Positions 8,510 through 56,811 of a stretch of DNA of 64,000 nt are shown piece by piece (the first letter of the stretch is position 1; each line of letters begins with the position of its first letter). The stretch lies in the IMG/VR virus record IMGVR_UViG_3300017589_000080, positions 11,012-75,011 of that record. One strand, given 5' to 3'. A program made the position numbers and the translations under genes. This DNA comes from a virus. Lineage: Duplodnaviria > Caudoviricetes. A model generated the notes under the pieces. The model was not told where the DNA came from. It worked only from the letters and a program-made list of their open reading frames with translations, and ran no database searches.

Positions 8510-8512
8510 ATA

Positions 8513-10997: not shown

Positions 10998-11016
10998 ATG
11001 AGAAGAGGATACTGAA

Positions 11017-11752: not shown

Positions 11753-11767
11753 AAAGGACATAAAAAT

Positions 11768-13339: not shown

Positions 13340-13343
13340 TCCT

Positions 13344-14441: not shown

Positions 14442-14453
14442 TGAGGAAATAAA

Positions 14454-18136: not shown

Positions 18137-18154
18137 TTAAGAGAGGTCATCTAG

Positions 18155-19459: not shown

Positions 19460-19460
19460 A

Positions 19461-20030: not shown

Positions 20031-20039
20031 GGAGAGGTT

Positions 20040-23425: not shown

Positions 23426-25834
23426 ATGGCAAATAATAGATTTAAAACGTTTATTGAGAACATTGGTCAAGGCAATAAGAAGTCAAAAGATTCCTTAACG
23501 ACTCGAAGAATTCGAATCAAAGGTAATCCCTCAAGTCAAGATCATGTTCCAATAGCACGTAAAGGCAGAACTCTTCCAGACTTCCTTGAAAGTATCGAAG
23601 GTTCAAGTCTTGTCGATGTCTCAGAATTAAATCAATTTAGAACAATGTCAAGCGATAGAGAGATTCAATATAAGATCTATGATGAGATGGCAAGAGATAC
23701 AATTATCTCCTCTGCATTAGAATTATATTCTGATGATGCAACTCAGTACAATTCAAAAGGTCAGATCGTTTGGGCAGAAGCAGAAGATCCAGACATCTCA
23801 GCATTTGCTAACCGACTTATTGAAATCCTCGATCTTAATAACAATGCATGGTCTCACATTTACACAATGGTTAAATATGGAGATCTGTATCTTGAAACTT
23901 ATCGAGATGATGAAACCGATGAACAATCAATTCTTACAGGAGATCTAAGTTATTCTGATGTTAAAGTACATCGAGAACGAGAAGGATCTCAAATGGAAGA
24001 ATATATAGAAGCAGTTAGTAACCCTTCAGACATCTTTGATTTAACAAGTCGAGGAAAGACAGTTGGGTTTATTCGTGTTCCTACAGATGACAGAGATTCA
24101 TTAGAACCACATGCAAGTTATCAATATCTTGGTGATGAAGAGGAGACAGTTGTTCTTAGACCAACCAAGTACATCCATGTCGCCATGTCCAATGATGTCG
24201 ATAGATTCCCACAAACTCTTAAGTTACGTTACGTTAAGGATGGAACCACTGATCTCGATGAACAGTACACTCGTTCTTATGTTGTTAGTCGTGGTAAATC
24301 TGTTCTACATAACATTTACAAATCCTACAAAGAACTTTCTCTTATGGAAGATTCTCTTTTATTAAATCGTGTTACTCGTTCTTCAATAATAAGACTTCTT
24401 CAAATTGAAGTTGGTGACATGCCTAAAGGTAAGATCCGTGAATTGTTAAAACGATTTAAATCACTTATTGAACAGAAGAACTACATGGACAAGAATGATG
24501 GAACTTATACATCAATGGCAGCTCCAGGTCCAATTGACAATGTTATCTATGTTCCTACTAAGGATGGTAAGGGAGCGATCTCAGCATCTAACTTAGGTGG
24601 CGATGTAGATATTAAGTCGATAGTCGACATTGATTACTTTAAGAACAAAGTGTATGGTGGTCTAAAGATTCCCTCAGCATTCTTAGAAGGCAAGTGTTTA
24701 CATCAAAGTGTTGTTCCTGTTCTTCTTGATGGTTCTACTAATAACATTAAAAGCATGTACGAGGACAAGGATGCATTCATTGGTAGAGACATTGTAACCT
24801 GCTCAATTTCAGGATCAGTTACCTCTTCCAAGATAGTTGATGTACAGAGAACAAGAATCAATGCTAACTTCGTAAGAGTTAACTTAGACAATGAGAAGAG
24901 CTTCATTGTTACTCCTGATCATCCAGTCATGTTAGACAATGGTATCTTTCTTGAAGCCATCTATCTGTCAGAAGGATTAAAGTTAATGCCATATTCTACA
25001 ACAGTAATTGACAATGACTTAATAACTCTTGACAATGAGACTGGTACTTATCTTGATCTTAAGACAGGATCTACTATTCCTTATATTGTTACTCTTAATG
25101 AGGTGTCTACTGCAGTCATGGTAACAAGTGTTGATGTCCTTGACATTATTGAAGATGCCTATGACCTAACAGTTGAAAGTGATAATCATACTTTTGCAAT
25201 TGACAGTGGTCTCTTTATTCATAACAGTGATGATGGCGGTTTATCTGCAGGAACAGCTTTAACAAAACTTGACTCACGTTATGCCAGAACAATTAAGAGA
25301 ATTCAAAACTCTTATATCATGGGAATAACCACTCTTGTAAATCTCTTTGCATTGGATCGTGGTCTTGATGATCATGTTAATAACTTTGTAATTAAGATGG
25401 TATCTCCTTCAACCATAGAAGACTCAGAACGAGATGAAGTAATGGACAGTCGTATGAACATGATTGGAACCTTTATGGATTTGATAGCTGATGAGAACAT
25501 AGTAGACAATACAACAAGGAAAGACATCTTGATGTACTTCGTAAGCAATTTCCTTAATGAACCTGAGATTGCTAAGTTCCTTGCAGAGGATACAACGACA
25601 GAAATACAAGAAGAAATACCTGAAGAGGGGTCAGAAGAAGATGGCTTCAGTCCTTCAGGTGGAAGCTTCAGTAGTTCTGGGTCTTCTCCTCCTTCCTCAA
25701 GTGGAATTGATGGACCTGCTGAAACAGGTGATGGTTCTGAAGGTGGTGATATCCCTGACAACCTTGGTGCTGATGACAATGGTATAACCGACAATACAGA
25801 GTTTGGAAACTTTGAAGATGAATTTGACAGATAG
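23426..25834 (+). CDS. Portal protein (T4 gp20-like) containing an intein
   Basis: LMEDSLLLNRVTRSS..R...IEVGDMPK.K and DIDYFKNKVYGGLKIPSAFL match the gp20 family; acidic Ser/Gly-rich tail. Confidence 0.9.
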   Translation: MANNRFKTFIENIGQGNKKSKDSLTTRRIRIKGNPSSQDHVPIARKGRTLPDFLESIEGSSLVDVSELNQFRTMSSDREIQYKIYDEMARDTIISSALELYSDDATQYNSKGQIVWAEAEDPDISAFANRLIEILDLNNNAWSHIYTMVKYGDLYLETYRDDETDEQSILTGDLSYSDVKVHREREGSQMEEYIEAVSNPSDIFDLTSRGKTVGFIRVPTDDRDSLEPHASYQYLGDEEETVVLRPTKYIHVAMSNDVDRFPQTLKLRYVKDGTTDLDEQYTRSYVVSRGKSVLHNIYKSYKELSLMEDSLLLNRVTRSSIIRLLQIEVGDMPKGKIRELLKRFKSLIEQKNYMDKNDGTYTSMAAPGPIDNVIYVPTKDGKGAISASNLGGDVDIKSIVDIDYFKNKVYGGLKIPSAFLEGKCLHQSVVPVLLDGSTNNIKSMYEDKDAFIGRDIVTCSISGSVTSSKIVDVQRTRINANFVRVNLDNEKSFIVTPDHPVMLDNGIFLEAIYLSEGLKLMPYSTTVIDNDLITLDNETGTYLDLKTGSTIPYIVTLNEVSTAVMVTSVDVLDIIEDAYDLTVESDNHTFAIDSGLFIHNSDDGGLSAGTALTKLDSRYARTIKRIQNSYIMGITTLVNLFALDRGLDDHVNNFVIKMVSPSTIEDSERDEVMDSRMNMIGTFMDLIADENIVDNTTRKDILMYFVSNFLNEPEIAKFLAEDTTTEIQEEIPEEGSEEDGFSPSGGSFSSSGSSPPSSSGIDGPAETGDGSEGGDIPDNLGADDNGITDNTEFGNFEDEFDR
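24695..25225 (+). mobile_element. Mini-intein (177 aa, no homing endonuclease) in portal
   Basis: Begins CLHQSVVPVLLDG; block B TPDHPVM; block F YDLTVESDNHTF; ends IHN followed by Ser (+1). Confidence 0.92.
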
Positions 25835-33623: not shown

Positions 33624-34769
33624 ATGGCTAAATTAAAAGAAGATGTATTTGCAAAAACTATGGCAATGTGCCTGGAGAGCAAGAAAAGAAAAGCACCTGC
33701 AGGTAAAGCAGCTCCCAAATCTCGTAAAATGACTGAGTCAGCTAAACGTCGTCGACAACTGAGAGAATCAGAAGACGAAGAAACATATGGCATTGATGAA
33801 GAATTATTGACCGAAGAGGAAGACGAAGATGTGGATTCTTATATGGATGATATCTCTGACACTATGGTTCTGGTGGACCCTGAATTAGACGTGGATGATT
33901 TAGAATCTGCTGCTGACGATCTTCAGGATCTTGTTGATGGAACTCCTGATGGAGAAATTCCTTTCTTGGATGACTACATTGGCGATGACGCTTACACTTG
34001 TCCTATCTGTGCTAACACTTTCATTTCAGAAGATCCTATGGAAGATGGAGAAGAATGCCCAGTTTGTGGAGACTTCCCAAGCAAGTTCATTATCGTTGGT
34101 GGTATTGAAGAACCAGAAGCAGTATCTGAAAATGACGATGAAGATCTTGACATTGATGAGCCTGAAGAAGACTTAGAAATGGAAGAACCAGAAGAGGAAG
34201 AAGAAGAAAAAGAAGAATCATTCAGACGTCGTAAAGCTCCTTCCAGAACTCGAACAGCTTCTAAGAAACCTACTGCTCGTAAACCAGTTAAGAAAGAATC
34301 TAAGTTCTCTTTAGATGAAACTACTTTTAATCCATTCCTGACCAAATTCATTCAGGAAAATTATAAGAATGCACGTTCAATGAAAGTTGTATCTGCAAAC
34401 TTAAGTGGTGCTAAATTATCTTTGGAATGTAAACTTACCTTTAAGACTGGCACTGTTAAGCCTGTAACCTTAAGAGTTGAAAACTTTAAACCTGCACGAC
34501 AGATGAAACTTGCTGCAACGGAACAATCATTCTTCAAGATCGAATCCAAACGTGGTGCTAAAGTTGCTCCATTCATCTTCACAACCAAAATGGAAAAGAA
34601 CATTATTACTTGTGAAGGCTTGAAATACAAGTTCGTTACCAAAGCTAAGAATGAAAACAAACGTTATGAAGTTTACGGTGACTTGATTGTTGAATCAACA
34701 TCTCGACGAGCTCCTGCAAAGCAATTGCCTGCAAAAAGAAAAGCACCTGCTTCCCGACGACGCATCTAA
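33624..34769 (+). CDS. Acidic scaffold/core-like protein with zinc ribbon
   Basis: Long D/E tracts, CPIC...CPVC, basic linkers, several (L/M/K/R)xE-S sites. Confidence 0.55.
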   Translation: MAKLKEDVFAKTMAMCLESKKRKAPAGKAAPKSRKMTESAKRRRQLRESEDEETYGIDEELLTEEEDEDVDSYMDDISDTMVLVDPELDVDDLESAADDLQDLVDGTPDGEIPFLDDYIGDDAYTCPICANTFISEDPMEDGEECPVCGDFPSKFIIVGGIEEPEAVSENDDEDLDIDEPEEDLEMEEPEEEEEEKEESFRRRKAPSRTRTASKKPTARKPVKKESKFSLDETTFNPFLTKFIQENYKNARSMKVVSANLSGAKLSLECKLTFKTGTVKPVTLRVENFKPARQMKLAATEQSFFKIESKRGAKVAPFIFTTKMEKNIITCEGLKYKFVTKAKNENKRYEVYGDLIVESTSRRAPAKQLPAKRKAPASRRRI

Positions 34770-40682: not shown

Positions 40683-40705
40683 ATTATGAATTGGAGGTGA
40701 AGATA

Positions 40706-43700
40706 TTGGCAAATGACAAAGGCAAGACACCTGATAATGACTCGAATAAAAATAACAGTGATCCTCTAGGAACCAAAAGAAGTAATCCTTTTAGATCTAA
40801 TAAGACTGACAAATATGATTTTATTTCAGTGGATGTTAAAGGTGTCTCAAAAGACGTTGAAAAGATCTTCAGTGTTGCTAAGTCTGAATTATCCAGTTAT
40901 AATAAAGTTTACAATAAAACTATTGATAACATGATCTCTTATACAGAGAAGAGTTATGACTCAATGTATTCTAGATTAAGAAGCAAACACAACTCTTATA
41001 TGTCAGACATCTATGGCAGTCAAAAAACTAATGCTGCCAAGATGGATGACTTGTTTGGTAAGCCTGTTAAGAAGCAGATTATTATTGACTCACAAGGTAC
41101 TGTTAAGAACCTTGATGCAGTTGCTCCTTCAAATAAGGAACCAACTGACAAAGAATCTAAAGGTCTTGTTCAACATGGTGCTGAACTCATTGTTGGAACG
41201 CTTGAAAAGTATCTTGATATTTGGATTGATCGTTTCTTAAATGGTGTTAATAAAATTGCTGGAACCTATGAAGCAACTTACAAAGGTGTTTCAGTAATGA
41301 TGAATGAAAACCAATCTCAATACATGGGTTGGCAGACATCTGCAATGGGTGAGATTAAGAACATGGGTCTCACTAACAATGTCGCAATAAGTGCTGTAAT
41401 GAGTGAGTTGTCTGACATTACTAAGATGGGTGTTATTGGTGAACGTGCTAAGAATAAGGCTCTTGCTGATACAATTAGTAAGACTCTTTCTCCATACATT
41501 AGCACAACTACAGATGCTTATACAGATCTACAGTTCAAACTTGGTGACAACTTCACAACCTCAATGAGAGGAATGGGAGCATCAATACAAGAACAAACAG
41601 GTCAGTTAAGATTCTTAGTTAAGAATGCTGATGACATTTTAACAAACATGGAACCAATGTTCTTGAATGCTAAATCAGATTCCTTTGATAAACAATTCTC
41701 ACAGATGGCAGGAACGCTTGAACAAATGGTTGCTTCTGGAGATATTACATCAGTTCAAGCTGAACAGTATAAACAAGACACTTATAGTTTAGTAATGGAT
41801 CAATATGGAACATTACAGAATGGAACGACTGCTCAAATAACTGCCCTTAATGACATGTACAACAAGGGTGTTAATCCTGAAGATGATATTGCTAAAACAT
41901 TGGCAACCTATGGTAAAACCTCTGCTGATCTTATGAATCTTGCAGATACATCTGGTGTCTTTGGTGGTGTTAACAGAAGTGCTGTTGGTACAAATCTTGT
42001 TGGTGGTAGTTCACAAATGTGGTACACTCCTGAAGAATCATCAACATGGATAGAAGCTCTTAATAAGATGTCTGAGATAGATCCAAATGCTTCTGGAGAA
42101 CAACTTCTTAAACAACTTGAAGATGACAAGTACACCACAGCATTAGAAGCAAAAGATACATGGACAGAAAATCAATCTTTAGCAACTGCTCAATTCAAAC
42201 AGACTTATCCTGATGCTTATACATTATTAGAAGGAATGGCATTGTCTTTAAAAGCAATTGTATTTGCAACTGCTGCATCTGGCATTACTAACCTCTTCTC
42301 TGGTAGTGGATCTTCTGCAGTTGGAAAGATGTTTGGTAATGGTACTGGTAAGATTATCAGTGAGTCAACTGCTCTTGGTGCCAAAGAAGCAATCAAAACA
42401 ACAGGATCTAAATTCTTGACTTCTGCAACAAGTATTCTAAGCACTAATGCTGCAAAGATTGTCGGTGGTGCTGGTGGTGCTTTAGCTCTTGGACTTGATG
42501 CCTATCAAGGATATAAGAAAGCTGATGAATGGAAGACAAGTCAAACTGCTTCTGCTGTTGGTGGTGCTCTTGGTGGATCTGGTAAAGGTCTTGGAGAAGG
42601 TGGACTAATAGAGGTTGGTGGGAACATTGCTCTCAACGCATTGAAAGGTGCTGCAATTGGAACAATCTTTGGACCAGTTGGAACATTAGTTGGTGCTGGA
42701 GTTGGTGGATTGTTTGGTGCCATTGGTGGTAAACGATTTGCAGAGGGCATGGATACTGTTACAGATACGTTAGGGAAGTTTGGAAAACAAATAAGTGGAT
42801 CTACAAATGCTTTCTCAGAAACAATGGGGAAACTTGAAGATCAATTTAAAAACCAGACAGAGATAATGAAAGATGAACATAACACCAATGTTACTCAGAT
42901 GGAAGACCTTAAGAAGACTTGGGAATCTGCTACAACTCTTGAAGAGAAACGCAAGATCCTAGTTGATAAAGGAATCATGACGAATGAAGAGGCATCCAAT
43001 TCAACATCTGCTAAGCTCGAATCAATGTTTGAAAACTATTACAAAGACTCAACTACTCAGGAAGAAGTCAGAACAACTGCAGAGAAAGAGTATTACAAAG
43101 AACGACAGAAAGCTACAGAAGACCAGTTCAATGCTGACTTAGATAAGAACAAACAAATATTAAAAGACCAATTAAAATCTAAGACAGGTGATGAATTAAA
43201 AGCCTTCGGAGAAGACATTGGATTAAATGAACAACAAATTAAAAACATCCAAAACTCTAAAGGCAAGTTCAATGAAGAGAATCTTATTAATGCTATCATC
43301 AACAATACTTCAAAGGTTGGAGAAGGTGCAACTGATACAGAGAACTCTAAGATCTTAAACAAGAAGTATAATTTAAGTTTGAATGGTCTTGATCCTGAAC
43401 AAGCTGCAGTTGACAATGCTGCATACGCTACAAAGATGGCAGAAGAGAAAGCTAAGACTGCAACTGCTGAAGCTACTAAGGCTCCAACTAAGACAGTAAA
43501 CTTTGGCATGGGAAATATTCTTGGATATGCTGTTGGAGATGATCTTGTTTCTAAAGACTCCATTGTTAAGGTACACCAAGATGAAGGAATCTTAACGAAG
43601 GATGACAATCGGGAATACAGAAAAGTTCAGCAAGCAGTTCCAGTAATAAGTGATTTCATTAATAAAGCGTCATCTTTGACAGCTACAAATAACACTGACA

Positions 43701-43906
43701 ATACAAGTAATCAGACTATTGATCTTGACAACACTGATGTTATTAAAGCACTGTATGATATTGCAAATAATATTGTGACAGCAGTCAAAGGAATCAGTGT
43801 CGGCAAGGATACGACAGCAACAAATAATCTATTATCAAAAGGTGGAACCTCGAGTTATGATTTTAACTTGACAAACTTAGTCCCATCAATGCCAACTAAC
43901 AGGTAG
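40706..43906 (+). CDS. Tape measure protein
   Basis: About 1066 aa, helical, with Gly/Ala-rich hydrophobic stretches and a C-terminal YAVG...VH.DE.IL motif. Start moved to TTG 40706 after GGAGGTG. Confidence 0.88.
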   Translation: MANDKGKTPDNDSNKNNSDPLGTKRSNPFRSNKTDKYDFISVDVKGVSKDVEKIFSVAKSELSSYNKVYNKTIDNMISYTEKSYDSMYSRLRSKHNSYMSDIYGSQKTNAAKMDDLFGKPVKKQIIIDSQGTVKNLDAVAPSNKEPTDKESKGLVQHGAELIVGTLEKYLDIWIDRFLNGVNKIAGTYEATYKGVSVMMNENQSQYMGWQTSAMGEIKNMGLTNNVAISAVMSELSDITKMGVIGERAKNKALADTISKTLSPYISTTTDAYTDLQFKLGDNFTTSMRGMGASIQEQTGQLRFLVKNADDILTNMEPMFLNAKSDSFDKQFSQMAGTLEQMVASGDITSVQAEQYKQDTYSLVMDQYGTLQNGTTAQITALNDMYNKGVNPEDDIAKTLATYGKTSADLMNLADTSGVFGGVNRSAVGTNLVGGSSQMWYTPEESSTWIEALNKMSEIDPNASGEQLLKQLEDDKYTTALEAKDTWTENQSLATAQFKQTYPDAYTLLEGMALSLKAIVFATAASGITNLFSGSGSSAVGKMFGNGTGKIISESTALGAKEAIKTTGSKFLTSATSILSTNAAKIVGGAGGALALGLDAYQGYKKADEWKTSQTASAVGGALGGSGKGLGEGGLIEVGGNIALNALKGAAIGTIFGPVGTLVGAGVGGLFGAIGGKRFAEGMDTVTDTLGKFGKQISGSTNAFSETMGKLEDQFKNQTEIMKDEHNTNVTQMEDLKKTWESATTLEEKRKILVDKGIMTNEEASNSTSAKLESMFENYYKDSTTQEEVRTTAEKEYYKERQKATEDQFNADLDKNKQILKDQLKSKTGDELKAFGEDIGLNEQQIKNIQNSKGKFNEENLINAIINNTSKVGEGATDTENSKILNKKYNLSLNGLDPEQAAVDNAAYATKMAEEKAKTATAEATKAPTKTVNFGMGNILGYAVGDDLVSKDSIVKVHQDEGILTKDDNREYRKVQQAVPVISDFINKASSLTATNNTDNTSNQTIDLDNTDVIKALYDIANNIVTAVKGISVGKDTTATNNLLSKGGTSSYDFNLTNLVPSMPTNR

Positions 43907-43913
43907 GTGAGAA

Positions 43914-45320
43914 ATGAATTTAAACTATGAAAGTAATAACTATCTTGTCAAGTATCTACAGACATTCTTGCAAGAGAATTATTCAACGTCAATAAATGTA
44001 TCTGGTCGATATGATTCTGAAACACATGAATACCTTTTAAATTACCTAAGACTACCAAACACTTCTAACATTGAGATAATAAACACTGCATTGAAAGCTG
44101 ATTTTGTTGAGCTTTTTGACAGGTTCATCTTATACAGAAGTAGCAGTGATTTAGTATTTGTAAGTAAGGTTTATGACACAGATACGATAAGATACATTGA
44201 TGATATCCGATATGAATTGTCTGATTATGTTAACAAATATGGCTATGTAATCTCTGAGTTATCTAACTCTAACAATAGCGATACAACAAAATTAAGAATA
44301 GTCATTAAAGGGAAAGATAAGAAAGACTTATTTCCAAACAAAGATATGTTATGTCTTGTCAATTCCTTTAATAACAGATACATCTACAACATGGCAATCG
44401 TTGATAATATTGGTCAGGATGACATCCTCCATGAATCAGCTGGATACAAAGTTGGAGTTATTCCATGTGAACCAAATACAACTTATGGAATTTGCCATGG
44501 TTATGATCATACAACACCAATCGTAGTATCTTCAAGTATGCATAGTTTAAAAGAAATAAGTCTTGGAGACATCTCAGTTGATAACACTGTTAGTGTAAAC
44601 TTAGGTGTCTCCACCTTTTTAAATTACACTACATCAGATACTTGCAAACATTTATTAATTCAGATGCCACACACAAGTAATATTATAGACAAGACAACAA
44701 CTGTTAAAGTTCCTGTGCTTGTTGGTGATGTTAATCTTGACAACGTTGTTAATAAGACTGATAGAGATCTGTTAAAAGGATTCATTGATTCTAATACAGT
44801 CTTAAAAGGAATGCAATTCGTTGCAGCAAATACAGATACATCTCATAAGACAAATGGTCAACAGGTCATTGACAACTGGGATCTTGCAAAACTTGATGAT
44901 TATCTGGAGGGTGTTGTTGGGAACCTTGGCGTTGTCTATTATGATCAATTAATAAATGATGGGACAAGCGATTACAATAAACTCCTTGTAATTCAAGGGG
45001 ACTACTCTAATCTTAATGTTCCTGCTGAAGAATTCATTACAGATCCTTGGTCTGTCCATGGTAAGTTCTTAAATTATCTTATGGACATTGGGATTACAGG
45101 TTACAGTAATCAAGATGATATTTATTATGCACAGAAGCTTATTGGGAAATTATATACCAGTTATTCTTACAATCCAGGGTTATTCGATTCTGAAATGAGA
45201 ACATACATCAAAGAGTTCCAAGACTCAAGAGATATAAATTTCTCCTTTGGATATCTTGATGTTGAAACAGAAGCTGAGATATTAAAAATATTATCAGATA
45301 AAGGAGGTATCTCAGTATGA
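43914..45320 (+). CDS. Tail/baseplate protein with dockerin domain and PG-binding-like ends
   Basis: GDVNLDNVVNKTDRDLLK is a dockerin Ca-binding loop; second repeat AANTD...VIDNWDL..LDDYL; VKYLQTFL...VSGRYDSET and GLFD.EM..YIKEFQ...GYLD.ET resemble PG_binding_1. Confidence 0.7.
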   Translation: MNLNYESNNYLVKYLQTFLQENYSTSINVSGRYDSETHEYLLNYLRLPNTSNIEIINTALKADFVELFDRFILYRSSSDLVFVSKVYDTDTIRYIDDIRYELSDYVNKYGYVISELSNSNNSDTTKLRIVIKGKDKKDLFPNKDMLCLVNSFNNRYIYNMAIVDNIGQDDILHESAGYKVGVIPCEPNTTYGICHGYDHTTPIVVSSSMHSLKEISLGDISVDNTVSVNLGVSTFLNYTTSDTCKHLLIQMPHTSNIIDKTTTVKVPVLVGDVNLDNVVNKTDRDLLKGFIDSNTVLKGMQFVAANTDTSHKTNGQQVIDNWDLAKLDDYLEGVVGNLGVVYYDQLINDGTSDYNKLLVIQGDYSNLNVPAEEFITDPWSVHGKFLNYLMDIGITGYSNQDDIYYAQKLIGKLYTSYSYNPGLFDSEMRTYIKEFQDSRDINFSFGYLDVETEAEILKILSDKGGISV

Positions 45321-45796
45321 TAGGGTGTTATGTTTCATTAAACACAATAAAAGATAATGTAGCAATAGAACTTCCAAGTTATCCAGATGAATTATCAGAT
45401 AATACCAGTGCTAACTGGGCTGATCAAACAATAGTCGGAAGAAGTTCACCGATTGCAGCATTCACTGGAACTGGTTATAGAAATGTGAGCTTTAACTTCT
45501 TGATGCATCGTGAGATGGCTAATAACATTGAAGAGGTTATAAAGTTTCTAAGGTCTACAGTCTATCCTTCTTATCAAGCTTCTGGATTAATACCTCCAAT
45601 AACAACTTTCAGATTTGGAGCCTTCAGAATAAAAGGAATTGTAAGATCTGTTGGCTTCGTTTTCAAGAAACCAATTATTAATGAGGTCTATCAACTTTGT
45701 GAAGTTTCAATAAACATTGACAGTACACCAGAAAATGTAATTGATGTTGATTATATCATGTACTCAAGTTCAGCTATGAATCCAATGAATGACTAA
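45317..45796 (+). CDS. Tail tube initiator / baseplate protein
   Basis: PDELSD...W....IVGRSSPI..F..TG.R.VSF.F pattern of contractile-system tube-initiator proteins. Confidence 0.7.
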   Translation: MIGCYVSLNTIKDNVAIELPSYPDELSDNTSANWADQTIVGRSSPIAAFTGTGYRNVSFNFLMHREMANNIEEVIKFLRSTVYPSYQASGLIPPITTFRFGAFRIKGIVRSVGFVFKKPIINEVYQLCEVSINIDSTPENVIDVDYIMYSSSAMNPMND

Positions 45797-45807: not shown

Positions 45808-46233
45808 ATGAGTGATTACAGACCAAAGTTTGATCAATATAAATATCCAATGTCACCTGCATATTTATCTAATCTTAGGGATATTTATTATGATGTTGAG
45901 TATGTGAAGCCAGCGATATATAAATATGTTTCAAGATATCAGGAAACAAGACAGATAATAGATGCTGAGACAAGAAATGTACATCATGAGACATTTAATT
46001 ACAAGGTTATTAAAGAGAGTAAAGAAGATAAGTATCTTACTGTTGATAACATTAGTGCTAATCGTCTTGACATTATTTCCCTGTATGAATATGGGAGTCC
46101 AACTTATTGGTGGGTGTTAGCAGTTGCTAATAATATCTTAGATCCATTCAATATTTCTCTCGATACAATAATAAGAATCCCTCCATTATTTGCTCTTTAT
46201 AATAAAGGAGGTGTGTTAGAAGATGCCTACTAA
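45808..46233 (+). CDS. Baseplate wedge protein (gp53/LysM-like)
   Basis: RLDIISLYEYGSPTYWWVLAVANNILDPF...IRIP. Confidence 0.85.
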   Translation: MSDYRPKFDQYKYPMSPAYLSNLRDIYYDVEYVKPAIYKYVSRYQETRQIIDAETRNVHHETFNYKVIKESKEDKYLTVDNISANRLDIISLYEYGSPTYWWVLAVANNILDPFNISLDTIIRIPPLFALYNKGGVLEDAY

Positions 46234-47626
46234 GTCAGAAGGTATTAAAGTTCTAAATAACACACTCTCCTCTCTTAACACAATCCTAACCAAGTCTTAT
46301 TACAGTGTCTGGGTTAAGTTTACCATTGGAGAATTTGTAATAAATACAGCTTCAATGGAGAATAATTACTTTATGCACCTTGAAAACGTTAAGAATGGGA
46401 CTGGTCAAGCTAATCAATTTACGATTACTTTGGCATATGTTCCAAGACTTGGACCTGGATTGTCAGGTACTATTTACGACGCAGACTATTTAGATCAAAT
46501 AATTGTTCAGTCGAATAGAAAGTGCAAAATACAATATGGATATAGTCACAGCCAAGATAACTTGATTTCACCTGAGTACAATGGCATGATTATAGACTAT
46601 GGAATTGAAATAAGAGATGGCATGTTGTTATACACTCTTACAGGTTACAGTGGTTTGGTTGCAATTGCAAACACTTCTTTAAACTTTGATGCTAAGAAGA
46701 ATATGAAACCAACAGAAGCAGTTGCAGAAGAATTAACTGCTAAGCTTGCTAATCTCGGATACACAGTTGAATGGGAAGATGGTGTAAAAGGCTCTGATAA
46801 ATTGCCAACAAGTACAGATGACTCAAAGACTCCAATTATTCCAGCGATGTCAGATGTAACTTTATTTCAATATGTTGATTCAGTCCTTGGAATGGCTGTC
46901 TATGAAGGAAACGATATTAATACAGATGATCCTCTGAAATTATCCACTTATTATTATAACATAAGTGATAGTGACATGAAGATTTACATTGGTAGGAACG
47001 ATCCAACAGAAGAATCTGTAAATACTCAGTCAGCTATCTTTGTATTCAATTGGATGGACAGAACTAATAACATTGTTCTTGATTTCAAGCCAGACTTCAA
47101 AGGTTCTGTACTAATGTCTATGGCATCTCAGATAGCTTCAGATTCTTATGCTATTGGACCTGATGGTAAGAAAGTTGATAACACAAGATACATAAGCAAC
47201 TTTCCAATTGCAGGTGGTCAAGCAGTAGAAGATGGTGTTGCTGATGTATTAACATGGTCAGATGCAGTTAAGATATCTTATAAAGCCACTCTTATGTTGG
47301 TTGGTGTTCCTTGTGAAGTTCCAATAGGTGCTTACATTAAAGTAGTTCCTTTAATTTATGGCAAACCTCATCACACTCAAGGAACTTATATGGTTACAAA
47401 ATGCACTGACATAATTGATTCAGGTGGGTTTATCTCTTCTTTAAATCTTGTTAAGATTAATTCAGAAGAGGTTACTAACTTTACAACAATGATTAGTCAG
47501 ACAAGTGCATCAAGTAATATGCCAGCAAAATCTGAAATGAATTACAAGTACCAGGAAACAAAAGATAAGAATTTAGCTAATGGTAAAACAGAGAATGGTG
47601 GAGGTATCAATAATGGCGGAAGTTAA
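46223..47626 (+). CDS. Baseplate hub protein (gp27/late control D-like)
   Basis: Position between gp53-like and spike genes; KIQYGY and ATL..VG...V..G....G.Y.V....D.I...GF.S.L.L patterns. Confidence 0.75.
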   Translation: MPTKSEGIKVLNNTLSSLNTILTKSYYSVWVKFTIGEFVINTASMENNYFMHLENVKNGTGQANQFTITLAYVPRLGPGLSGTIYDADYLDQIIVQSNRKCKIQYGYSHSQDNLISPEYNGMIIDYGIEIRDGMLLYTLTGYSGLVAIANTSLNFDAKKNMKPTEAVAEELTAKLANLGYTVEWEDGVKGSDKLPTSTDDSKTPIIPAMSDVTLFQYVDSVLGMAVYEGNDINTDDPLKLSTYYYNISDSDMKIYIGRNDPTEESVNTQSAIFVFNWMDRTNNIVLDFKPDFKGSVLMSMASQIASDSYAIGPDGKKVDNTRYISNFPIAGGQAVEDGVADVLTWSDAVKISYKATLMLVGVPCEVPIGAYIKVVPLIYGKPHHTQGTYMVTKCTDIIDSGGFISSLNLVKINSEEVTNFTTMISQTSASSNMPAKSEMNYKYQETKDKNLANGKTENGGGINNGGS

Positions 47627-49103
47627 TATTCAATCAAAATTATCCTCATACAAAAGCTTCTACACGCCATTAAAAGGAATTGTAACAAGAGAAAATACAG
47701 ATGACCCTCTTAGACTTGATAGAATCCAGGTTAGAATACCTTCTTATCATGGAGAAGAGAAGAAACACTTGATTGGAACTGGTACAGATCCTGGAGGTTA
47801 TCCATGGGCACAGATGTGTGTCCTTGACTTCAAAGAGAATGGTAAAAATGTGTTCTCTTCAGTGACTTCAACTGTAAAAGATGCTGTTTCAAACTTATTC
47901 GGTAAAAGAAACCTTGGAGAGAAGAAGGAAACCAATATTCCAATCATTTATCCCAAGACTGGAGATACAATCTGGTTAATGTTTGAAGGTGGAGACATTA
48001 GATGTCCAATTTATATGGGGTCTCTTTCCTCGACTGTTAAAGCATTAGCAGTTTCCTCTGGACTATCTGGTCTTATCGGTGGTGACCTTGCAAAGATTGC
48101 AGCACAAGTAATAATGTCTAATGAAGGATCTTATGACTCAATAAACTGGGATGATGTTGGTAAAACATCAGTTGGAGTCTTACAATGGAGAGATAGTAGA
48201 GCACAGAAGTGTTTCAGTTATATCAGAGAAGCAAATTCAGCTTCTTTTGACTCAGCATGTGCTTCAAATAATGCTTCTGACTTTGTAAGCATGGTAAGTG
48301 GCTCATGGCCAGGACTATTCTCTGAATACTCAGCTGTTGGTAGTGCAATGTCAAGTATAATTTCAACTGACTACTCAAAAACTGGTCAGGATAAGTTATT
48401 GCAGGAAGATGTATCAGGATACTTGCAAGTTGGTAGAGATCTAGGACTAACAGATCCTGCAGCACTAGTATTCTTTGCAGACTGTTATAATCAATCACCA
48501 GCAGGAGCTGAAAGCATTGTTGTTGCTGGAATGAGCTTGGACGATATCTACAATGCTTCCTTAAATGCAGGAGGTCTAAGTGGTAGTTCAAATTGGTTAT
48601 CACCAAGACGTTCTAAGACATATGAGATGATAAAAACATTACAATCTCAAGGTGCTTTCAATCAACAACAAGCATCAAGTGCAGGTGGAACATTATTGTG
48701 GCCAGTCCCAGGTGCAGGATTAGATTCAAGTGATCCAACGAACTTATTTGGAAACAGAATTAATCCTTACTCTGGAGAATATAAGATGCATAATGGTGTA
48801 GATATTCAGGCACCAACAGGAACGCCATGTATTGCAGTATTTGATGGAGTTGTGAAGAGGGCAGGTAGTGGAGATGGATATGGTAATCGTGTCGATGTTT
48901 ATAAACCTGATGGTTCAATGTCAACTTTATATGGTCATTTATCAGCAATAACAGTAAGTGTAAATCAAACAGTTACAGCAGGAACAGTTATTGGATTGGT
49001 TGGAAGTACTGGTAATTCTACAGGTCCACATTTACATTTCAGTTTATTCAATGAACCTGCTGGAGAAGCCATAGATCCAGTTCCATATATTGGATCACCA
49101 TAA
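47613..49103 (+). CDS. Baseplate central spike/cell-wall hydrolase: gp5 OB-fold, lysozyme-like domain, M23 peptidase
   Basis: DPLRLDRIQVRIP and PKTGD.IWLMFEGGD..CPIYMG (OB-fold); SNEGSY..IN.DD..SVGVLQW; HNGVDI, YGHLS, STGPHLHF (M23). Start moved to ATG 47613 after GGAGGT. Confidence 0.85.
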   Translation: MAEVNIQSKLSSYKSFYTPLKGIVTRENTDDPLRLDRIQVRIPSYHGEEKKHLIGTGTDPGGYPWAQMCVLDFKENGKNVFSSVTSTVKDAVSNLFGKRNLGEKKETNIPIIYPKTGDTIWLMFEGGDIRCPIYMGSLSSTVKALAVSSGLSGLIGGDLAKIAAQVIMSNEGSYDSINWDDVGKTSVGVLQWRDSRAQKCFSYIREANSASFDSACASNNASDFVSMVSGSWPGLFSEYSAVGSAMSSIISTDYSKTGQDKLLQEDVSGYLQVGRDLGLTDPAALVFFADCYNQSPAGAESIVVAGMSLDDIYNASLNAGGLSGSSNWLSPRRSKTYEMIKTLQSQGAFNQQQASSAGGTLLWPVPGAGLDSSDPTNLFGNRINPYSGEYKMHNGVDIQAPTGTPCIAVFDGVVKRAGSGDGYGNRVDVYKPDGSMSTLYGHLSAITVSVNQTVTAGTVIGLVGSTGNSTGPHLHFSLFNEPAGEAIDPVPYIGSP

Positions 49104-49122: not shown

Positions 49123-49512
49123 ATGTTAGCAGAGAATTCGATCTCGTTCCCGAACATCGTAAATGTTTCAACAGGCTTCTCACAATACAGTTATGATTTA
49201 CAATCTATTAATGAATGCCTTGGACTATTGTTTACGACTAGTCGTGGAGAATTACTTGGTGATCCTTTATTTGGAACTAACTTATTAAAGTTAATACATG
49301 AACCAAATGATTATGTCCTTCAGGACTCAGTCCAAGATGAAATATTAAAAGCTGTTAAGTACTATGAGAATAGAGTAACAATGAATGAGAGCAGCATAAC
49401 AATGATCAACGAAGATAACAAGCTCACAATAAACCTGAATTATTATGTTAAAAAGTCTGGTGAAATTGGTGAGTTTGAATTAGTAATGATGAAAGGGGAT
49501 TTAAATGTCTGA
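49123..49512 (+). CDS. Baseplate wedge protein (gp25-like)
   Basis: L.LLFTTSRGE...DP.FGTNL..LIHEP...AV.YYE.RV. Confidence 0.9.
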   Translation: MLAENSISFPNIVNVSTGFSQYSYDLQSINECLGLLFTTSRGELLGDPLFGTNLLKLIHEPNDYVLQDSVQDEILKAVKYYENRVTMNESSITMINEDNKLTINLNYYVKKSGEIGEFELVMMKGDLNV

Positions 49513-51355
49513 TAATAACTTATCGAAATTATCTTATACAAGCAGAGATTATGCATCTATCTTTCAAGACCTTGTTAACGCTATTCCATCCTTAACAAAC
49601 ACATGGGTTGCAAGGGAAGAAACAGATCCAGGGATAGTGTTAGTTAAACTCATGTCAATGCTTGGAGATATGTTATCATATAACCAAGATAAAATGGTTT
49701 TGGAATTGTATCCAGAGTCAGTGACACAACGTAAGAATGCTGCACAGATATTCAACTTAATTGGTTATAAGATGCACTGGTATCGATCTGCAAGATCTGT
49801 GGCGACACTAACGAATGTTAATGTTAATCCTGCAACTGTTCCAAGATATACAAAATTTGTAACATCTGATGAATCTCTCTGTTACACCAATGTTTACCAA
49901 CTGGAGCTTCCAAGTAACACGACTAACAGTGGTATAGAATATCAGCTTGAACTCGTTCAGGGTCTTCCTAAGACTCCAACGATAGCTTCTGGATCTATTG
50001 CACCTGAATATAATGCAGCATGGCATTCTGTTTACTCTTTTAATGTTGTTTCAAGTGAAATTGTTTCCAACAGATTGTATATTAATGACGGAAATATTGA
50101 TGAATCTACAATAACTCTGATAGATGATGTTGGAGCAGAATGGATTCAAGTGAACAATGTTGACATCATGACAGCTACTGGTAAATTCTTTGAATTAAAA
50201 GTTGATGAATATGACAAAGCTTATCTTAAGATGGTAAATTACTGGTCAGACTTTGACTTGAAAAGATTTAAGTTATTCTATATTGTTTCTAATGGTGAGT
50301 CAGGTCAGATCTCAAGTAACACATTGGTAAGATCTATTACACCAATCTACACAATAACAGGAGATACAAACAACCGAACTTTTACAGATGTTTCTTCTGA
50401 CATAAGAATACTTAACAGAGCAAGTACATATGGATATAATCCAATGACACCAGATGAAGCTCGAGCAGACTCTGCTAAATATGTTAACACATATGATACT
50501 CTGATAAATCTTGATGACTTTACGAGAGCTACAATGAGATTAAATGGAGTTGCAAATTGTATATCTTTGGACAGTTCAAATGATCCAAACCCAGATCTTC
50601 CTTCTAATACTGTTAAGATCTATATTACTAAGGAACCTGAGTACGAAGACATAAATCCTGAGTCTTACAACGAGTACATTAATACAGAGTTAAGAAGTTA
50701 CAAGCTTATTCCAATTGATATTATTGTTGATACAACATCAATAAATTATTATTACTGGACTGTAAAAGGCGACTTATTCTTAACGACTCCTGCAACCATT
50801 GACAAATGTAATGACCTTCTTGTTCGTGTTAACAATCAATTAAGATTTATGTTCAGTCAATCAAAGGTTGGGTATAATCAAACAGTTAAGTTCTTGGATG
50901 TTATAAACAAAACAATGTTAACTGACAAGGTTATAAATTATGCTGAGATAGATCCTATTGAGTACAAAGACAGCTTGGGAAATATTGTTCCGAACAATGT
51001 TATCACAGGGAAGTATACACAAGAATTCCCTAACCATAATGTTTCAGTTCCAAACTTTAATTATACTTTACAGGCTCTTGAGTTCCCAATAAAACCTGGA
51101 TCTGTAATCTTGAAAGCTGAAGTTGGTCTCTACACAATCTATGACAATGGAAATGGCAAGTTAATAGATGATAATGGTCTTTTAAGACAGTACGGATCTA
51201 TAAATTATAAGACAGGTCTCATCTCTTTTGAAACGAACATCCTTTTGAATGTTCCATTAACTCTTGTTTATTACAAGAACGTTGTTAACATGGTTGTCTA
51301 TCAAAACTTTAATACACAATACTTTAATGTTGCAACTGAAAGTGTAAAGGTGTAA
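49505..51355 (+). CDS. Baseplate wedge protein (gp6/J-like)
   Basis: YTSRDYASI, WV..E.DPGIVL, A....IGYK, GYNP.TP.EAR, LI.LDDF motifs. Confidence 0.88.
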   Translation: MSDNNLSKLSYTSRDYASIFQDLVNAIPSLTNTWVAREETDPGIVLVKLMSMLGDMLSYNQDKMVLELYPESVTQRKNAAQIFNLIGYKMHWYRSARSVATLTNVNVNPATVPRYTKFVTSDESLCYTNVYQLELPSNTTNSGIEYQLELVQGLPKTPTIASGSIAPEYNAAWHSVYSFNVVSSEIVSNRLYINDGNIDESTITLIDDVGAEWIQVNNVDIMTATGKFFELKVDEYDKAYLKMVNYWSDFDLKRFKLFYIVSNGESGQISSNTLVRSITPIYTITGDTNNRTFTDVSSDIRILNRASTYGYNPMTPDEARADSAKYVNTYDTLINLDDFTRATMRLNGVANCISLDSSNDPNPDLPSNTVKIYITKEPEYEDINPESYNEYINTELRSYKLIPIDIIVDTTSINYYYWTVKGDLFLTTPATIDKCNDLLVRVNNQLRFMFSQSKVGYNQTVKFLDVINKTMLTDKVINYAEIDPIEYKDSLGNIVPNNVITGKYTQEFPNHNVSVPNFNYTLQALEFPIKPGSVILKAEVGLYTIYDNGNGKLIDDNGLLRQYGSINYKTGLISFETNILLNVPLTLVYYKNVVNMVVYQNFNTQYFNVATESVKV

Positions 51356-52555: not shown

Positions 52556-54544
52556 ATGGCTACAGATGTTGCTAAATACTATCTAACACAGAACATTGTT
52601 GTTTATCCAAGTAGTAATTCAATTGACAATGGTAAATTGACTATTGAAGAGAACTTAAAGAACATGGTTTCAAGAATAACCAGTCGTAACTATGCTTTAA
52701 AAAGTTCAGACTTTGTCCTATCAATTGTTGGTGGGAAGATTCAAATTGGTGCTGGTTCTGGTAACATACAAGGCTATGATGTTGTAAGTTCTGCTGCACT
52801 GCTTCTTGATAATCCGATCTCAGAAGTCGGTTACAAACTCATTGGTCTTAAAGTAACCAAAGATGGTTCTAACCATGTTCGAGGAGAAGTTTTAGATGGA
52901 AATGACACTTACTTCGAAGGAATATGGGCAGGATTCTTCCCAGAAGCTTCTGCAACTGATCCAGATCTATTAATTCTTGGAAGAGTCTACTGGGATGGCT
53001 TAGCATTCACAGAATTAGTAAGAGATTCAAAGATAACCCATAGAATTGATGCAGATAAAATTGATATTGATATTTCTGGACCAAAACCAACTGCTGTCAA
53101 TCTTGATCTCGAAGGAGCCTTTAATAAACTGCCAGACTGGTATGTTTCAAAATATGGTGACTTCATGGTTGGTAACTTTGAGTTAATAAGTAATAATGGA
53201 ATTACAGAAGGTCTTGCATTCCCATCAGCATTAGCTTCAGCAAGATTTACAGTTGGAACAAGTACAAATACGGGAGCAACACTTGCTTCTATGGTTCCAA
53301 GTAATAATAATATATTTTCTAAGCTAATGTCAACAGCAACAGGGTTTACAGGATTATCTTCTGGAGTTGCTAACAATGTAACCAACATTGGGTTTCCAAC
53401 AAGCAACAGTACACTATTCAGAATTCAAAATACAACAACTGGTGGTAGTGCTGGCTCTGGTAATATAGACTTTGTTGATGGTAAGATAATTATTAACAGT
53501 CTTAACAAAGGGATTGAAATAAAGAGTCCAAATGGTTCTTTAGCTGATAATTTAACTGCTTTACTGTCCAGTAACACTTTAAGCATTAAGACAGCAACAT
53601 CAAACAAACATACTTTTGGATATGACTCAACTGGAACAAATCCTTATTATACTATTGGCTCTTTAACTTTAAGAACTGTTGGAACAGATACAAGTATTGT
53701 GTCGAATGGTAATGTTTATGTTCAGATTGCTCCAAGCATTAGCACAGGATCAATAGTTGCATCTGGAAGTGTTAAAACTGGTGTTGGCATCTCTTATATT
53801 ATTGAAGATGAAAACAGTCTAAAACAATATGTCAGCAATGTTCCAATAAATCTTATCAATGTTGATGGTCTTATCTCTAATAAAAGTTATGGGTTAACAC
53901 CAACCATTGCAACACCGTATTCAGGAACATATTACAGTAAGACATCTTATGAAGCAGGAGTATTACAATCTGTTTATAAGAATACTCTTGGTAATTCTTC
54001 AATTAAATTCATTGGATCTGGATCAAATTCAGCAGAATTATTGTATAATTATACAACCAGCAGATTGAACTTAACAGGAGACTTTACAGTATCTGGGGAT
54101 ATTAAAGCAAGCCGAGTTTATAATGCTGTTTATAATGACTATGCTGATTTCGTAAAAATGGATAAAAGTATGTCATATGAACCTGGAGATATAGTCTCTA
54201 AAAAGGTTGGAGTTGATGAATACACATTAGCAACGGAGACTAATAAGAAGTTAGTGGTTGGAGTTTACTCTGACACATATGGACAAGTTCTTGGTGGCGA
54301 TGATCTTGATAACATGGAAGACAATCTTGAAAATTACATCCCAATAGCTGTTGCTGGTAATGTCTTTGTTAAAGTCATTGGCACAATTGAAGAGGGAGAT
54401 CTAATTACAGTATCATGTTTTGATGGTGTTGGTGTTAAGGTAACATCTATTGAAGACAGTTTTGGAACAATCATTGGAAAAGCATTAGAAAGTAAGACAT
54501 CTTATGGAGTTTCAAGAATAAAAGCTCAAGTAATTTTACTTTAA
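52556..54544 (+). CDS. Tail fibre/spike with C-terminal autocleaving chaperone (Peptidase G2-like)
   Basis: NDYADF...YEPGDIV...VGVYS...G..LG...PIAVAG.V.VKV.G...GD.I...G.G...IIGKALE. Confidence 0.75.
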   Translation: MATDVAKYYLTQNIVVYPSSNSIDNGKLTIEENLKNMVSRITSRNYALKSSDFVLSIVGGKIQIGAGSGNIQGYDVVSSAALLLDNPISEVGYKLIGLKVTKDGSNHVRGEVLDGNDTYFEGIWAGFFPEASATDPDLLILGRVYWDGLAFTELVRDSKITHRIDADKIDIDISGPKPTAVNLDLEGAFNKLPDWYVSKYGDFMVGNFELISNNGITEGLAFPSALASARFTVGTSTNTGATLASMVPSNNNIFSKLMSTATGFTGLSSGVANNVTNIGFPTSNSTLFRIQNTTTGGSAGSGNIDFVDGKIIINSLNKGIEIKSPNGSLADNLTALLSSNTLSIKTATSNKHTFGYDSTGTNPYYTIGSLTLRTVGTDTSIVSNGNVYVQIAPSISTGSIVASGSVKTGVGISYIIEDENSLKQYVSNVPINLINVDGLISNKSYGLTPTIATPYSGTYYSKTSYEAGVLQSVYKNTLGNSSIKFIGSGSNSAELLYNYTTSRLNLTGDFTVSGDIKASRVYNAVYNDYADFVKMDKSMSYEPGDIVSKKVGVDEYTLATETNKKLVVGVYSDTYGQVLGGDDLDNMEDNLENYIPIAVAGNVFVKVIGTIEEGDLITVSCFDGVGVKVTSIEDSFGTIIGKALESKTSYGVSRIKAQVILL

Positions 54545-54570
54545 AAATAATGTTAGGATGGTGTAAATAA

Positions 54571-56811
54571 ATGGCGACTTTTAGTTTTACTAATGGGAAA
54601 GGGTTCTGTATAGATTGGTCAACAAATCAGAGAGTCAGAGTAAAATCTGTCTCTTTCAGGATTGGTAACTGTCATTCAGGAATTAATACTGGTGCTGGTA
54701 ATTCAGTTGCAGGAATAAGAGGAGCAAGACTTGGTCTGTGGAATAGAAAACAGAACCAAGGAGATTCAGCAATTTCTCCAACATGGTATCAAGAATCAGA
54801 TAACTCTGGACCAACTGGATCTGGTGGAACATACTGGACATCTGGAGACTTCTACACAAAAACTGCTTACTTAGATGCTGTTGTAGAACCTGGGACATAC
54901 AGCATTGGAGTTTGGTCTCCTGTTAGTGGCTCAAGTATTTGTATCGGTTGGGGTGGACCAGAGTCTACTTTGTATGATGCTCTTGGTAATGCATGGGAAA
55001 GTTTTGCAGGGACATCTCTTGGACCAACAAGACCAATATGGTACTCAGTTGTAACAGCTCCTGCAGATGACAGACCAACAATAAACTTCGCAAGTCCTCC
55101 AGAGAAAACTCTTGTAAAGCATGACGCATTATTTAGAGTTGAGTACACAGGAAACACAAGTATAACAAGTAATAATACAACAGTGTTTTACAGCGTCAAT
55201 GGTGAGTCATATGTTAACCTTGGAGTAAACAATAATGGTGGAACAATTGATGTCTTGCCATCTTCCAAAGGGATATTACCTGGATCAGCTTTTAAGTATA
55301 AGCTTAAGAGATATAATTCATTGTCAACTCCACAAGATAGTCTTGAGATGACAAGAGAGTTCAGAACCTTTACTCTTCCAACAATAAACAGCTTCTCAGT
55401 AAACTATAATAAGATAAATGCTAATACACTTGCTAAGTTTATCTGGAGTAATTGGACAGGTGCTTTTGAATTTGATCCAGTTTACTCATGGCATGAGAAT
55501 TCTCTGTTATATCTGTCAATAAACGGTTCTCCAGATATCTTATGTGGAGAAGACTCTTACGTAACAAGTGTTTTATCACAGGAAATTGTACTTGGGCATC
55601 TTGATGGAACTTCTGGTTATGTAGATTTTGTAAAGGATAATATCTCAGTAAATGTTATATTGAAGAGGGTTCATAAAGACACAGGTGTTACAGCAACTAA
55701 GACAATTCCAGTTACTGTAAGGTACACACCAACTGAAACAATACAGAACTTCTCTCCAGATCTTAAAAATCAATCAAACATTGTCTCTACAGATCAGACA
55801 AGTTTAGATATGTCATGGAGTTATCCCGACAATATAAATGATGTTAATAATGGTCAGAATGGTGTTGTCTCATTATATGAGCTTAATTTTATTAGCACTC
55901 GTGATGGGTCGGTTGTAAAAGAAATTACAACCAGCAAGTCATTCTCATTAAATTTGTCTAAGCTGAAACCAACAGTGGCATATAATTTATTAATTTATCC
56001 TGTTTATACAAATAATCTAACAGGAGAATCATTAATTTATAGCAGAGGTCCAGTTTACGCAATTAATAATTATGTGACTCGAATCTCAAGAATTAAAACA
56101 CCTGTTATTGCTTATCCTGTTAGTGGTGGAGATTGGTATGGTTTAACATTTAGAATTGCTCTCAGATTACCAGAAGATCCAGATTATCAACATATGACAG
56201 CTGGTGCAGCATCAACTTATCTGTATGAAGATATCGAAGTAATGATAAATGGTGTTGTTAAATCAATAAAGTTAAACCCAACTGCATTTTCATCATTATT
56301 AACAGAGTTAACTTACCAATCTAAGATTGTCTTTAATCCTGTTCTTGCTGGCTTTAATTTGAACTCACCAATATTCTCTGTAAGAGTTCGTGTTAAGAAG
56401 AAATATGTAACACAGTCTTTAGAGCTTGCTTGGACTTCATGGTCTCAAGAAGTTTTTGTGAACAACCGTACCAAACCTTTAATCTTAACGTCTCAAGGGT
56501 CTACTGTGAGCTTATCAGAGGTAAATGCGATGGATAATGAGGTAACAAAGATTACTGGGTCATACTTCCCAGTTGAAAACTATGTTCCATCTCATGATGT
56601 TATCAAAGCAGTTGACTTTTTGATCCTGTTTACACAGATGTTAGCAGTCACCACTACAATTAATGGTTATGCTATTTTCAATGCTGGAAGAGTTCCTGTA
56701 AGATTTAATAGTCTTGGAACATTTATACCAGACAACGTTGAGATTACATACAATACACCAAATGGATACATTCAAAAATTACTTGCAAGCTTAGATGTGC
56801 TTTGTAGTTAA
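54571..56811 (+). CDS. Tail protein with Ig/FN3-like domains
   Basis: Beta-rich; P.I..F, L..SWSYP, Y.L.IYP and SWSQE patterns. Confidence 0.6.
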   Translation: MATFSFTNGKGFCIDWSTNQRVRVKSVSFRIGNCHSGINTGAGNSVAGIRGARLGLWNRKQNQGDSAISPTWYQESDNSGPTGSGGTYWTSGDFYTKTAYLDAVVEPGTYSIGVWSPVSGSSICIGWGGPESTLYDALGNAWESFAGTSLGPTRPIWYSVVTAPADDRPTINFASPPEKTLVKHDALFRVEYTGNTSITSNNTTVFYSVNGESYVNLGVNNNGGTIDVLPSSKGILPGSAFKYKLKRYNSLSTPQDSLEMTREFRTFTLPTINSFSVNYNKINANTLAKFIWSNWTGAFEFDPVYSWHENSLLYLSINGSPDILCGEDSYVTSVLSQEIVLGHLDGTSGYVDFVKDNISVNVILKRVHKDTGVTATKTIPVTVRYTPTETIQNFSPDLKNQSNIVSTDQTSLDMSWSYPDNINDVNNGQNGVVSLYELNFISTRDGSVVKEITTSKSFSLNLSKLKPTVAYNLLIYPVYTNNLTGESLIYSRGPVYAINNYVTRISRIKTPVIAYPVSGGDWYGLTFRIALRLPEDPDYQHMTAGAASTYLYEDIEVMINGVVKSIKLNPTAFSSLLTELTYQSKIVFNPVLAGFNLNSPIFSVRVRVKKKYVTQSLELAWTSWSQEVFVNNRTKPLILTSQGSTVSLSEVNAMDNEVTKITGSYFPVENYVPSHDVIKAVDFLILFTQMLAVTTTINGYAIFNAGRVPVRFNSLGTFIPDNVEITYNTPNGYIQKLLASLDVLCS

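Follow-up and report, generated by a model that had tools for sequence, protein, structure and literature searches.

In the 64,000-nucleotide stretch of viral DNA analysed here (the window), taken from the 75,011-bp IMG/VR virus contig IMGVR_UViG_3300017589_000080, the gene at 43914..45320 (+) encodes a protein of 468 amino acids, termed P0002, which by homology and predicted fold contains a genuine dockerin. Dockerins are calcium-dependent plugs by which bacteria fasten proteins to cohesins, the matching sockets on the cell surface. The type I dockerin module (44715..44930 (+); residues 268-339, or to residue 340 in the fold alignment) lies inside a loop of a β-sandwich. The gene is part of a tail-baseplate gene module, and judging from sequence its product is a conserved baseplate or tail-tip protein, with a predicted location in the virion. 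We propose, with a probability of roughly 0.5, that P0002 is a wall-binding baseplate or tail-tip protein whose dockerin is an exposed, optional, calcium-dependent adhesion module with a host-encoded ligand.

The dockerin module and the domains around it

An initial annotation of the window had described, at 44718-44906 (residues 269-331 of P0002), the calcium loop and following helix of a first dockerin repeat, then a degenerate second repeat, and had placed peptidoglycan-binding-like domains at both ends of the protein. Closer analysis bears out these descriptions. Repeat 1 (44727..44792 (+), residues 272-293, DVNLDNVVNKTDRDLLKGFIDS) consists of a canonical 12-residue calcium loop, with the ligands D1, N3, D5, N9 and D12 in the arrangement D-x-N-x-D-x3-N-x2-D, and of helix 1, which spans residues 281-293 in the model. 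It fits the profile obtained from 111 repeats of the phage family and 896 bacterial dockerin repeats, two sets that share the same position-specific profile except at position 18, where 37% of the bacterial repeats have Lys or Arg and the phage family has mostly acidic or polar residues. Repeat 2 (44823..44906 (+), residues 304-331) combines a degenerate long loop, N306-D323, with helix 3. The loop has 18 residues and is no intact calcium loop; where the consensus of long-loop relatives reads AAN...D.D..GNP.ID..D, P0002 has S310 and K312 at the two Asp positions. Given the Ser and Lys in place of two Asp, the second calcium site of the P0002 dockerin is probably weakened or lost; the loop of repeat 2 is degenerate in the relative P0003 as well. 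Helix 3 (residues 321-331) is kept in the P0002 model, and its surroundings, IDNWDLAxLDDYLEG, are near-identical in P0003 despite an overall identity of only 52%, which suggests that helix 3 is under constraint.

With the Dockerin profile hidden Markov model (HMM), a check advised in the initial annotation, orthologues score above the cut-off and P0002 itself does not. Against Pfam Dockerin_1 (PF00404), P0002 scores 12.4-17.2 bits, below the gathering cut-off of 22.9 bits (E 0.006-0.04 for the matches of 14.6-17.2 bits), and a phmmer search of the PDB finds the C. thermocellum Doc435 dockerin (Cthe_0435, 4DH2_B) at E 1.6e-4, with repeat 1 driving the match. The significance from the single sequence is marginal. 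Eight homologues of P0002, aligning end to end, were found among 5.8 billion proteins. Two of these, P0004 and P0005, orthologues with 46% identity, reach Dockerin_1 scores of 36.9 and 32.2 bits over the same aligned columns as the P0002 module; P0006, P0007 and P0008 have three or four dockerins each, with scores of up to 105.8 bits (P0006), and P0009 has none. A profile of the eight homologues retrieved 2116 proteins among 1.84 billion representatives, about 60 of them with the whole scaffold, and hundreds of multi-dockerin proteins match the family profile only at positions ~263-340. When the 75-kb record was searched with PF00404, the module under study was the only match.

The AlphaFold2 (AF2) model of P0002, built on 56 relatives, has a predicted local distance difference test score (pLDDT) of 91.7 and a predicted template modelling score (pTM) of 0.79; it replaced a model built on eight sequences, with a pLDDT of 61.8. 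An unfiltered VIA structural search of 48,161 PDB chains returned solved dockerins as all ten of its best matches, covering residues 268-340 with Z scores of 8.1-11.3, and the ten structures come from cohesin-dockerin complexes. The best match, 2CCL_B, superposes on the predicted model with Z 11.3 and a root mean square deviation (rmsd) of 1.5 Å over 62 residues at 34% identity, and Foldseek gives a TMt of 0.88 to the same chain; the predicted model thus has the three-helix dockerin fold. The low Pfam scores of P0002 (12-17 bits against 22.9) would fit an EF-hand-like motif that arose by chance and is no dockerin at all. We consider the probability of this to be negligible, since at the aligned columns orthologues are past the cut-off, positions 263-340 of the family profile recover multi-dockerin proteins by the hundred and the fold match is close; on these grounds the P0002 dockerin is no chance match, and we exclude one.

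Compared with cellulosomal type I dockerins (2CCL/1OHZ, C. thermocellum Xyn10B; 4DH2; 2VN5/2VN6, C. cellulolyticum Cel5A), P0002 shares the two-repeat, three-helix fold (Z 9-11.3, rmsd 1.5-2.3 Å, 26-34% identity) and the canonical first loop D-x-N-x-D-x3-N-x2-D. Its repeat 1 has Thr at position 11, in agreement with the Ser-Thr pair of C. thermocellum dockerins. The differences are that cellulosomal dockerins are terminal on secreted enzymes, whereas that of P0002 lies inside a sandwich loop of a predicted phage virion protein, and that the latter has an 18-residue second loop minus two Asp, lacks a basic pair at positions 17-18 and has no known cognate cohesin.

The scaffold of P0002 runs in the order N block, core, mid2 and C block, with the dockerin between core and mid2. 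At the N terminus is a PG_binding_1-like helical domain (43914..44063 (+), about residues 1-50) that scores 22.7 bits in Pfam against a cut-off of 23. It is followed by an alpha/beta domain (44067..44318 (+), residues 52-135) with generic fold matches only (Z ~6-7), and then by the first part of a β-sandwich resembling a carbohydrate-binding module (CBM; 44331..44699 (+), about residues 140-262). The dockerin is inserted, in the model, between sandwich strands 261-269 and 340-348; the second part of the sandwich follows at 44931..45098 (+) (about residues 340-395), where strands 340-348 and 357-361 complete it. Over residues 150-362 the sandwich has VIA matches of Z ~6 to CBM16, CBM4 and a porphyran-binding CBM, and its BFVD matches are CBM-type domains in tail fibres, receptor-binding proteins (RBPs) and Dit of Lactobacillus, Bacillus, Clostridium, Enterococcus and Lactococcus phages. 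The C-terminal PG_binding_1-type domain (45099..45317 (+), residues 396-468, or from residue 392 in the layout drawn from the model and block HMMs) has fold matches in a middling range, Z 6.0-6.6, to CtpB, the AP3 endolysin, the SleB N-domain, SleC and phiKZ gp144, while orthologues of P0002 reach 37-39 bits for PF01471 in this domain and PG_binding_1 is matched in 21 of the 56 family members. Profiles of the N-terminal and C-terminal blocks align with an hhalign E of 3.5e-5, which shows a relationship between the domains at either end. As far as these matches and the model go, P0002 is made entirely of modules of the envelope-binding type, and peptidoglycan binding is predicted for it. No solved baseplate protein was among the fold matches listed for the P0002 model, and such a match is not thereby excluded; PHROGs and NCBIfam yield no family for the protein.

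Two groups of tail proteins are useful for comparison. LysM or peptidoglycan-binding proteins are encoded after the tape measure gene in contractile tails, examples being XkdP of PBSX, the LysM 'glue' protein of R-pyocin and gp53 of T4. P0002 shares with these proteins the gene place beside tape measure and hub, and small modules of the peptidoglycan-binding type. It differs in having a PG_binding_1-type three-helix bundle at each end rather than LysM, in being much larger and in adding the alpha/beta domain, the CBM-like sandwich and the dockerin, and no match in sequence or fold to them was obtained. The CBM-decorated tail-tip proteins of Gram-positive phages ('evolved' Dit, BppA, neck passage structure, RBPs) have in common with P0002 the match of the CBM-like sandwich and the presence of optional adhesion modules inserted in loops. 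They are of another protein family and tail type, however, and the insert in P0002 is a protein-protein docking domain, not a carbohydrate binder.

The protein family and its insertion hot spots

The gene for a P0002-family protein stands directly after a tape-measure-like open reading frame (ORF; ~900-1150 amino acids) and before a tube-initiator-like gene in the window and in the contigs L002, L003, L004, L006, L007 and L008. The shared order of the module is sheath, tube, gp26-like protein, tape measure, the P0002-family protein, tube initiator, hub, gpV-M23 spike, gp25 and gp6. The contigs of the relatives measure 104-143 kb, and one of them (the 143-kb L008) comes from a sample labelled WOLF17-1 METAG. 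In the window, the ORF of P0002 begins 8 nt past the end of the 1071-residue ORF at 40691..43906 (+), a putative tape measure named from its position and length only. That the dockerin gene comes right after the putative tape measure, as initially annotated, agrees with the order kept in the loci of six relatives.

The number of dockerins per family protein varies from 0 to 5. At least one is present in 27 of 56 family representatives when a block HMM is used (18 of 56 by Pfam), and many members have none. The modules occupy three hot spots, namely the junction of N block and core, the junction of core and mid2 (the spot used in P0002) and a site inside the C block. At the second of these the insert measures 0-317 residues, and in some members the two halves of a dockerin are split by another insert. 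On a scaffold tree computed with the dockerin columns removed, the presence of dockerins is patchy, with one clade carrying 3-5 modules, and dockerin-free relatives retain the same tail module. Since the hot-spot loops tolerate large variable inserts, they should be solvent-exposed in the assembled particle.

A dockerin-bearing insertion was also seen in a second baseplate protein of a relative. The gp6/J-like wedge protein encoded at L002:15965-18097 (710 amino acids) has an 84-residue insertion containing a dockerin, which is missing from the product of 49505-51355 in the window. The two wedge proteins align by BLASTP in two segments with 58% and 42% identity, and the insertion falls between residues 361 and 365 of the window protein.

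A search of 185,579 species genomes of bacteria and archaea gave no relative of P0002, tblastn with P0002, P0006 and P0009 gave no match in 50,697 deposited phage genomes, and a pattern search of IMG/VR revealed no relative either. The best bacterial match of the family profile, P0045 (on an ENA ERZ27256871 contig), was considered as a donor and rejected, its similarity to the phage proteins being only dockerin-level. P0045 is a protein of 1605 amino acids with about ten dockerin repeats, and its locus neighbours encode a cohesin protein, a giant leucine-rich repeat (LRR) protein and a GDSL-lipase-CBM4_9-dockerin enzyme.

The search for phage cohesins and a proposed role of the dockerin

The Cohesin profile (PF00963), which may miss divergent cohesins, matched nothing at E≤1 in a six-frame search of the 75-kb record (estimated completeness 62%), so that the genome search for a cohesin suggested in the initial annotation came back empty. 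None was found among the genes called around five relatives, nor in another 47 viral records with dockerins, of which 18 are at least 90% complete and several have terminal repeats. Dockerins themselves are frequent. We scanned IMG/VR for a DNA pattern encoding GD[VIM]NxDGx[VIM]D and found the dockerin loop motif in at least 120 contigs (L009-L128), including genomes complete by direct terminal repeats (DTR) and jumbo records of 400-470 kb. Nearly all of the matches fall in long open frames, and 31 of 40 sampled ORFs with the motif match Dockerin_1 at E≤0.001. Phage dockerins would thus generally occur without a phage cohesin. From the lack of a cohesin in the record and in the 47 viral records it follows that the socket is host-encoded or that none exists.

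Among the contigs with the motif are two lysins with the domain orders GH25-Dockerin_1-LysM (L030:4691-5722 (-)) and GH25-Dockerin_1-CW_7 (L036:1683-2657 (+)). In both, the dockerin separates the catalytic domain from the wall-binding module.

Under the proposal made above, the phage lineage would be an uncultured and probably virulent one with genomes of ~105-145 kb, T4-type heads and contractile tails. P0002 would lie beside the M23 spike, on the cell-proximal baseplate face, and help to keep the tail tip attached to the cell wall, and the dockerin would be an accessory calcium-dependent adhesion module on an exposed loop of the sandwich. Its ligand, if any, would be a host surface cohesin or a cohesin-like protein, and in this phage the dockerin may have a single working face or may be decaying. 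We count in favour of the proposal that dockerins stand alongside wall-binding modules in GH25 lysins too. A more specific version is that the family displays dockerins on the baseplate, on the P0002 protein and on some gp6-like wedges, and that these plug into host-surface cohesins as a primary or auxiliary receptor; we regard this version as rather unlikely. Docking of the virion on cohesins of the host or its cellulosome, put forward in the initial annotation, is a possible function; the structural part of that annotation is supported.

Several points weigh against the proposal. There is no known binding partner of the P0002 dockerin, and the host itself was not identified. Two consensus Asp of the second loop are replaced by other residues, and the family's dockerins are without the basic residue frequent at position 18 of the bacterial repeats, a position that contacts cohesin in C. 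thermocellum. Because so many family members have no dockerin, the module is by all appearances dispensable for assembly and infection. Exposure of the hot-spot loops is deduced from insertion tolerance alone, and the LysM 'glue' proteins, whose genes directly follow the tape measure gene in other contractile tails, are fairly internal.

Some of these same observations favour a purely structural module, either a calcium-binding fold that stabilises or stiffens an exposed loop or a decaying remnant, with no partner in either case. The degenerate second loop of P0002 and P0003, the lack of a cohesin in every viral record searched, the frequency of dockerin-less orthologues and the acidic or polar character of position 18 all fit such a module, and EF-hand-like calcium sites are known to have structural or catalytic roles in phage lysins, as in LysGH15 (PMC4022735). 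Stabilisation alone would, however, hardly explain why one clade has 3-5 copies and why a second baseplate protein has received an independent insertion; the strong conservation of helix 3 between P0002 and P0003 and a repeat profile otherwise indistinguishable from that of bacterial dockerins also speak against it, and we judge a purely structural module, the main rival, to be somewhat unlikely. The initial annotation had also considered that the virion might use such binding to attach its own parts. The dockerin could plug into a cohesin-like domain of another structural protein, for example to join a fibre to the baseplate. The fibre-like gene set is indeed unusually large (2119-21479 and 52556-56811) and would call for points of attachment, the record lacks 38% of the genome and a divergent cohesin can escape PF00963. 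The failure to find a cohesin in the record, in the flanks of the five relatives or in the 47 dockerin-bearing records nevertheless argues against self-assembly by cohesin-dockerin pairing, as does the unchanged tail module of the dockerin-free relatives, and we consider pairing within the virion very unlikely. A wall-binding protein with an accessory dockerin directed at a host-encoded ligand is the reading that we prefer.

Cohesin-dockerin pairing ranks with the tightest and most specific protein-protein interactions known, and to our knowledge its discussion is as a rule confined to cellulosomes, amylosomes and a small number of surface complexes. The presence of dockerins in the baseplate family (0-5 copies), in lysins and in over 100 viral contigs suggests that phages have repeatedly captured the dockerin plug. 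Were a host cohesin the partner, phage receptor interactions would gain a new class, borrowed from a surface-assembly system of the host; dockerin specificity would provide a handle for host prediction, and orthogonal docking pairs could be drawn from the phage proteins as a natural source. Should no partner exist, these dockerins would be stand-alone, calcium-stabilised loop modules, and the reading of 'dockerin' annotations in metagenomes would be affected.

The supposed rarity of the system needs some qualification. We found no paper that describes a phage tail or baseplate dockerin serving in adsorption, whereas dockerins as such are common in viral contigs, as the IMG/VR scan makes clear. 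Dockerin genes have been reported on an ANME (anaerobic methanotrophic archaea) virus contig (PMC13452462), a dockerin-like gene in vibriophage VvAW1 (PMC3558961), and UniProt lists a protein of an uncultured myovirus as 'Dockerin type 1'. What is distinctive in P0002 is the carrier, flanked by PG_binding_1-type domains and encoded after the tape measure, together with the type-I-like sequence, the insertion in a loop, the variable copy number and the half-degenerate state of the module.

The tail module, the host and neighbouring genes

Upstream of P0002, the module comprises the sheath gene (from 37396), the gp19-type tube gene (from 38987), the gene of a gp26-like T4_baseplate protein (PF12322; from 39710) and the putative tape measure. 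The last is flanked by the gp26-like gene and the P0002 gene, and relatives have an ORF of 890-1154 amino acids at the equivalent place; profile searches with Pfam, PHROGs and NCBIfam gave it no family match except a weak Gly-zipper. Downstream follow a tube-initiator-like protein (CIS_tube/gpU-like; 45317..45796 (+)), with 22.2 and 18.4 bits, under the cut-off, and a match to phrog_76 (tail), a small wedge-like protein (from 45808) and a protein of 467 amino acids (46223-47626). Next is the tail spike (47580..49103 (+)), which has a gpV OB domain (PF04717, 24.2 bits) and a C-terminal M23 peptidase domain (PF01551, 100.6 bits). As listed, the ORFs of the 467-residue protein and the spike share 47 nt, and the start of the spike may be further downstream. 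The module continues with gp25 (from 49123), the gp6/J-like baseplate wedge protein (49505..51355 (+)), which has an N-terminal match to TIGR02243 and is without a dockerin in the window, and a P2-I-like protein (from 51358), after which two fibre-sized ORFs are next.

The host is probably Gram-positive, as hinted by the likeness of a fibre to those of Listeria and Bacillus phages, by the M23 spike and by the CBM matches. The fibre protein at 20040-21479 (+) has a C-terminal discoidin or NedA-like galactose-binding domain and shares 34-45% identity with fibres of phages of Listeria, Bacillus and Arthrobacter. Genes in genomes of Bacteroidales, Saccharimonadales, Rhodanobacter and Paenibacillus resemble it too, at 39-48% identity, and with matches in such unrelated phyla it was rejected as a host marker. 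The nearest phage matches of the M23 spike are from human faecal viromes. The sheath has an identity of only ~24%, to T4-like phages whose hosts are Gram-negative bacteria and cyanobacteria. There are no tRNAs in the window, and a protein of the capsid region (33624-34766) and a fibre protein (54571-56808) had no phage matches.

The window also encodes a T4-type portal protein at 23426-25834 (+) (Portal_T4, 180.6 bits), in which residues 432-600 form an intein-like insertion (Intein_splicing, 29.7 bits, under the cut-off of 35.8). In the relative L008, the tube gene and the gp26-like gene are separated by a GIY-YIG endonuclease gene (L008:5298-6227), and the spike contains a Phage_lysozyme2 domain besides M23.

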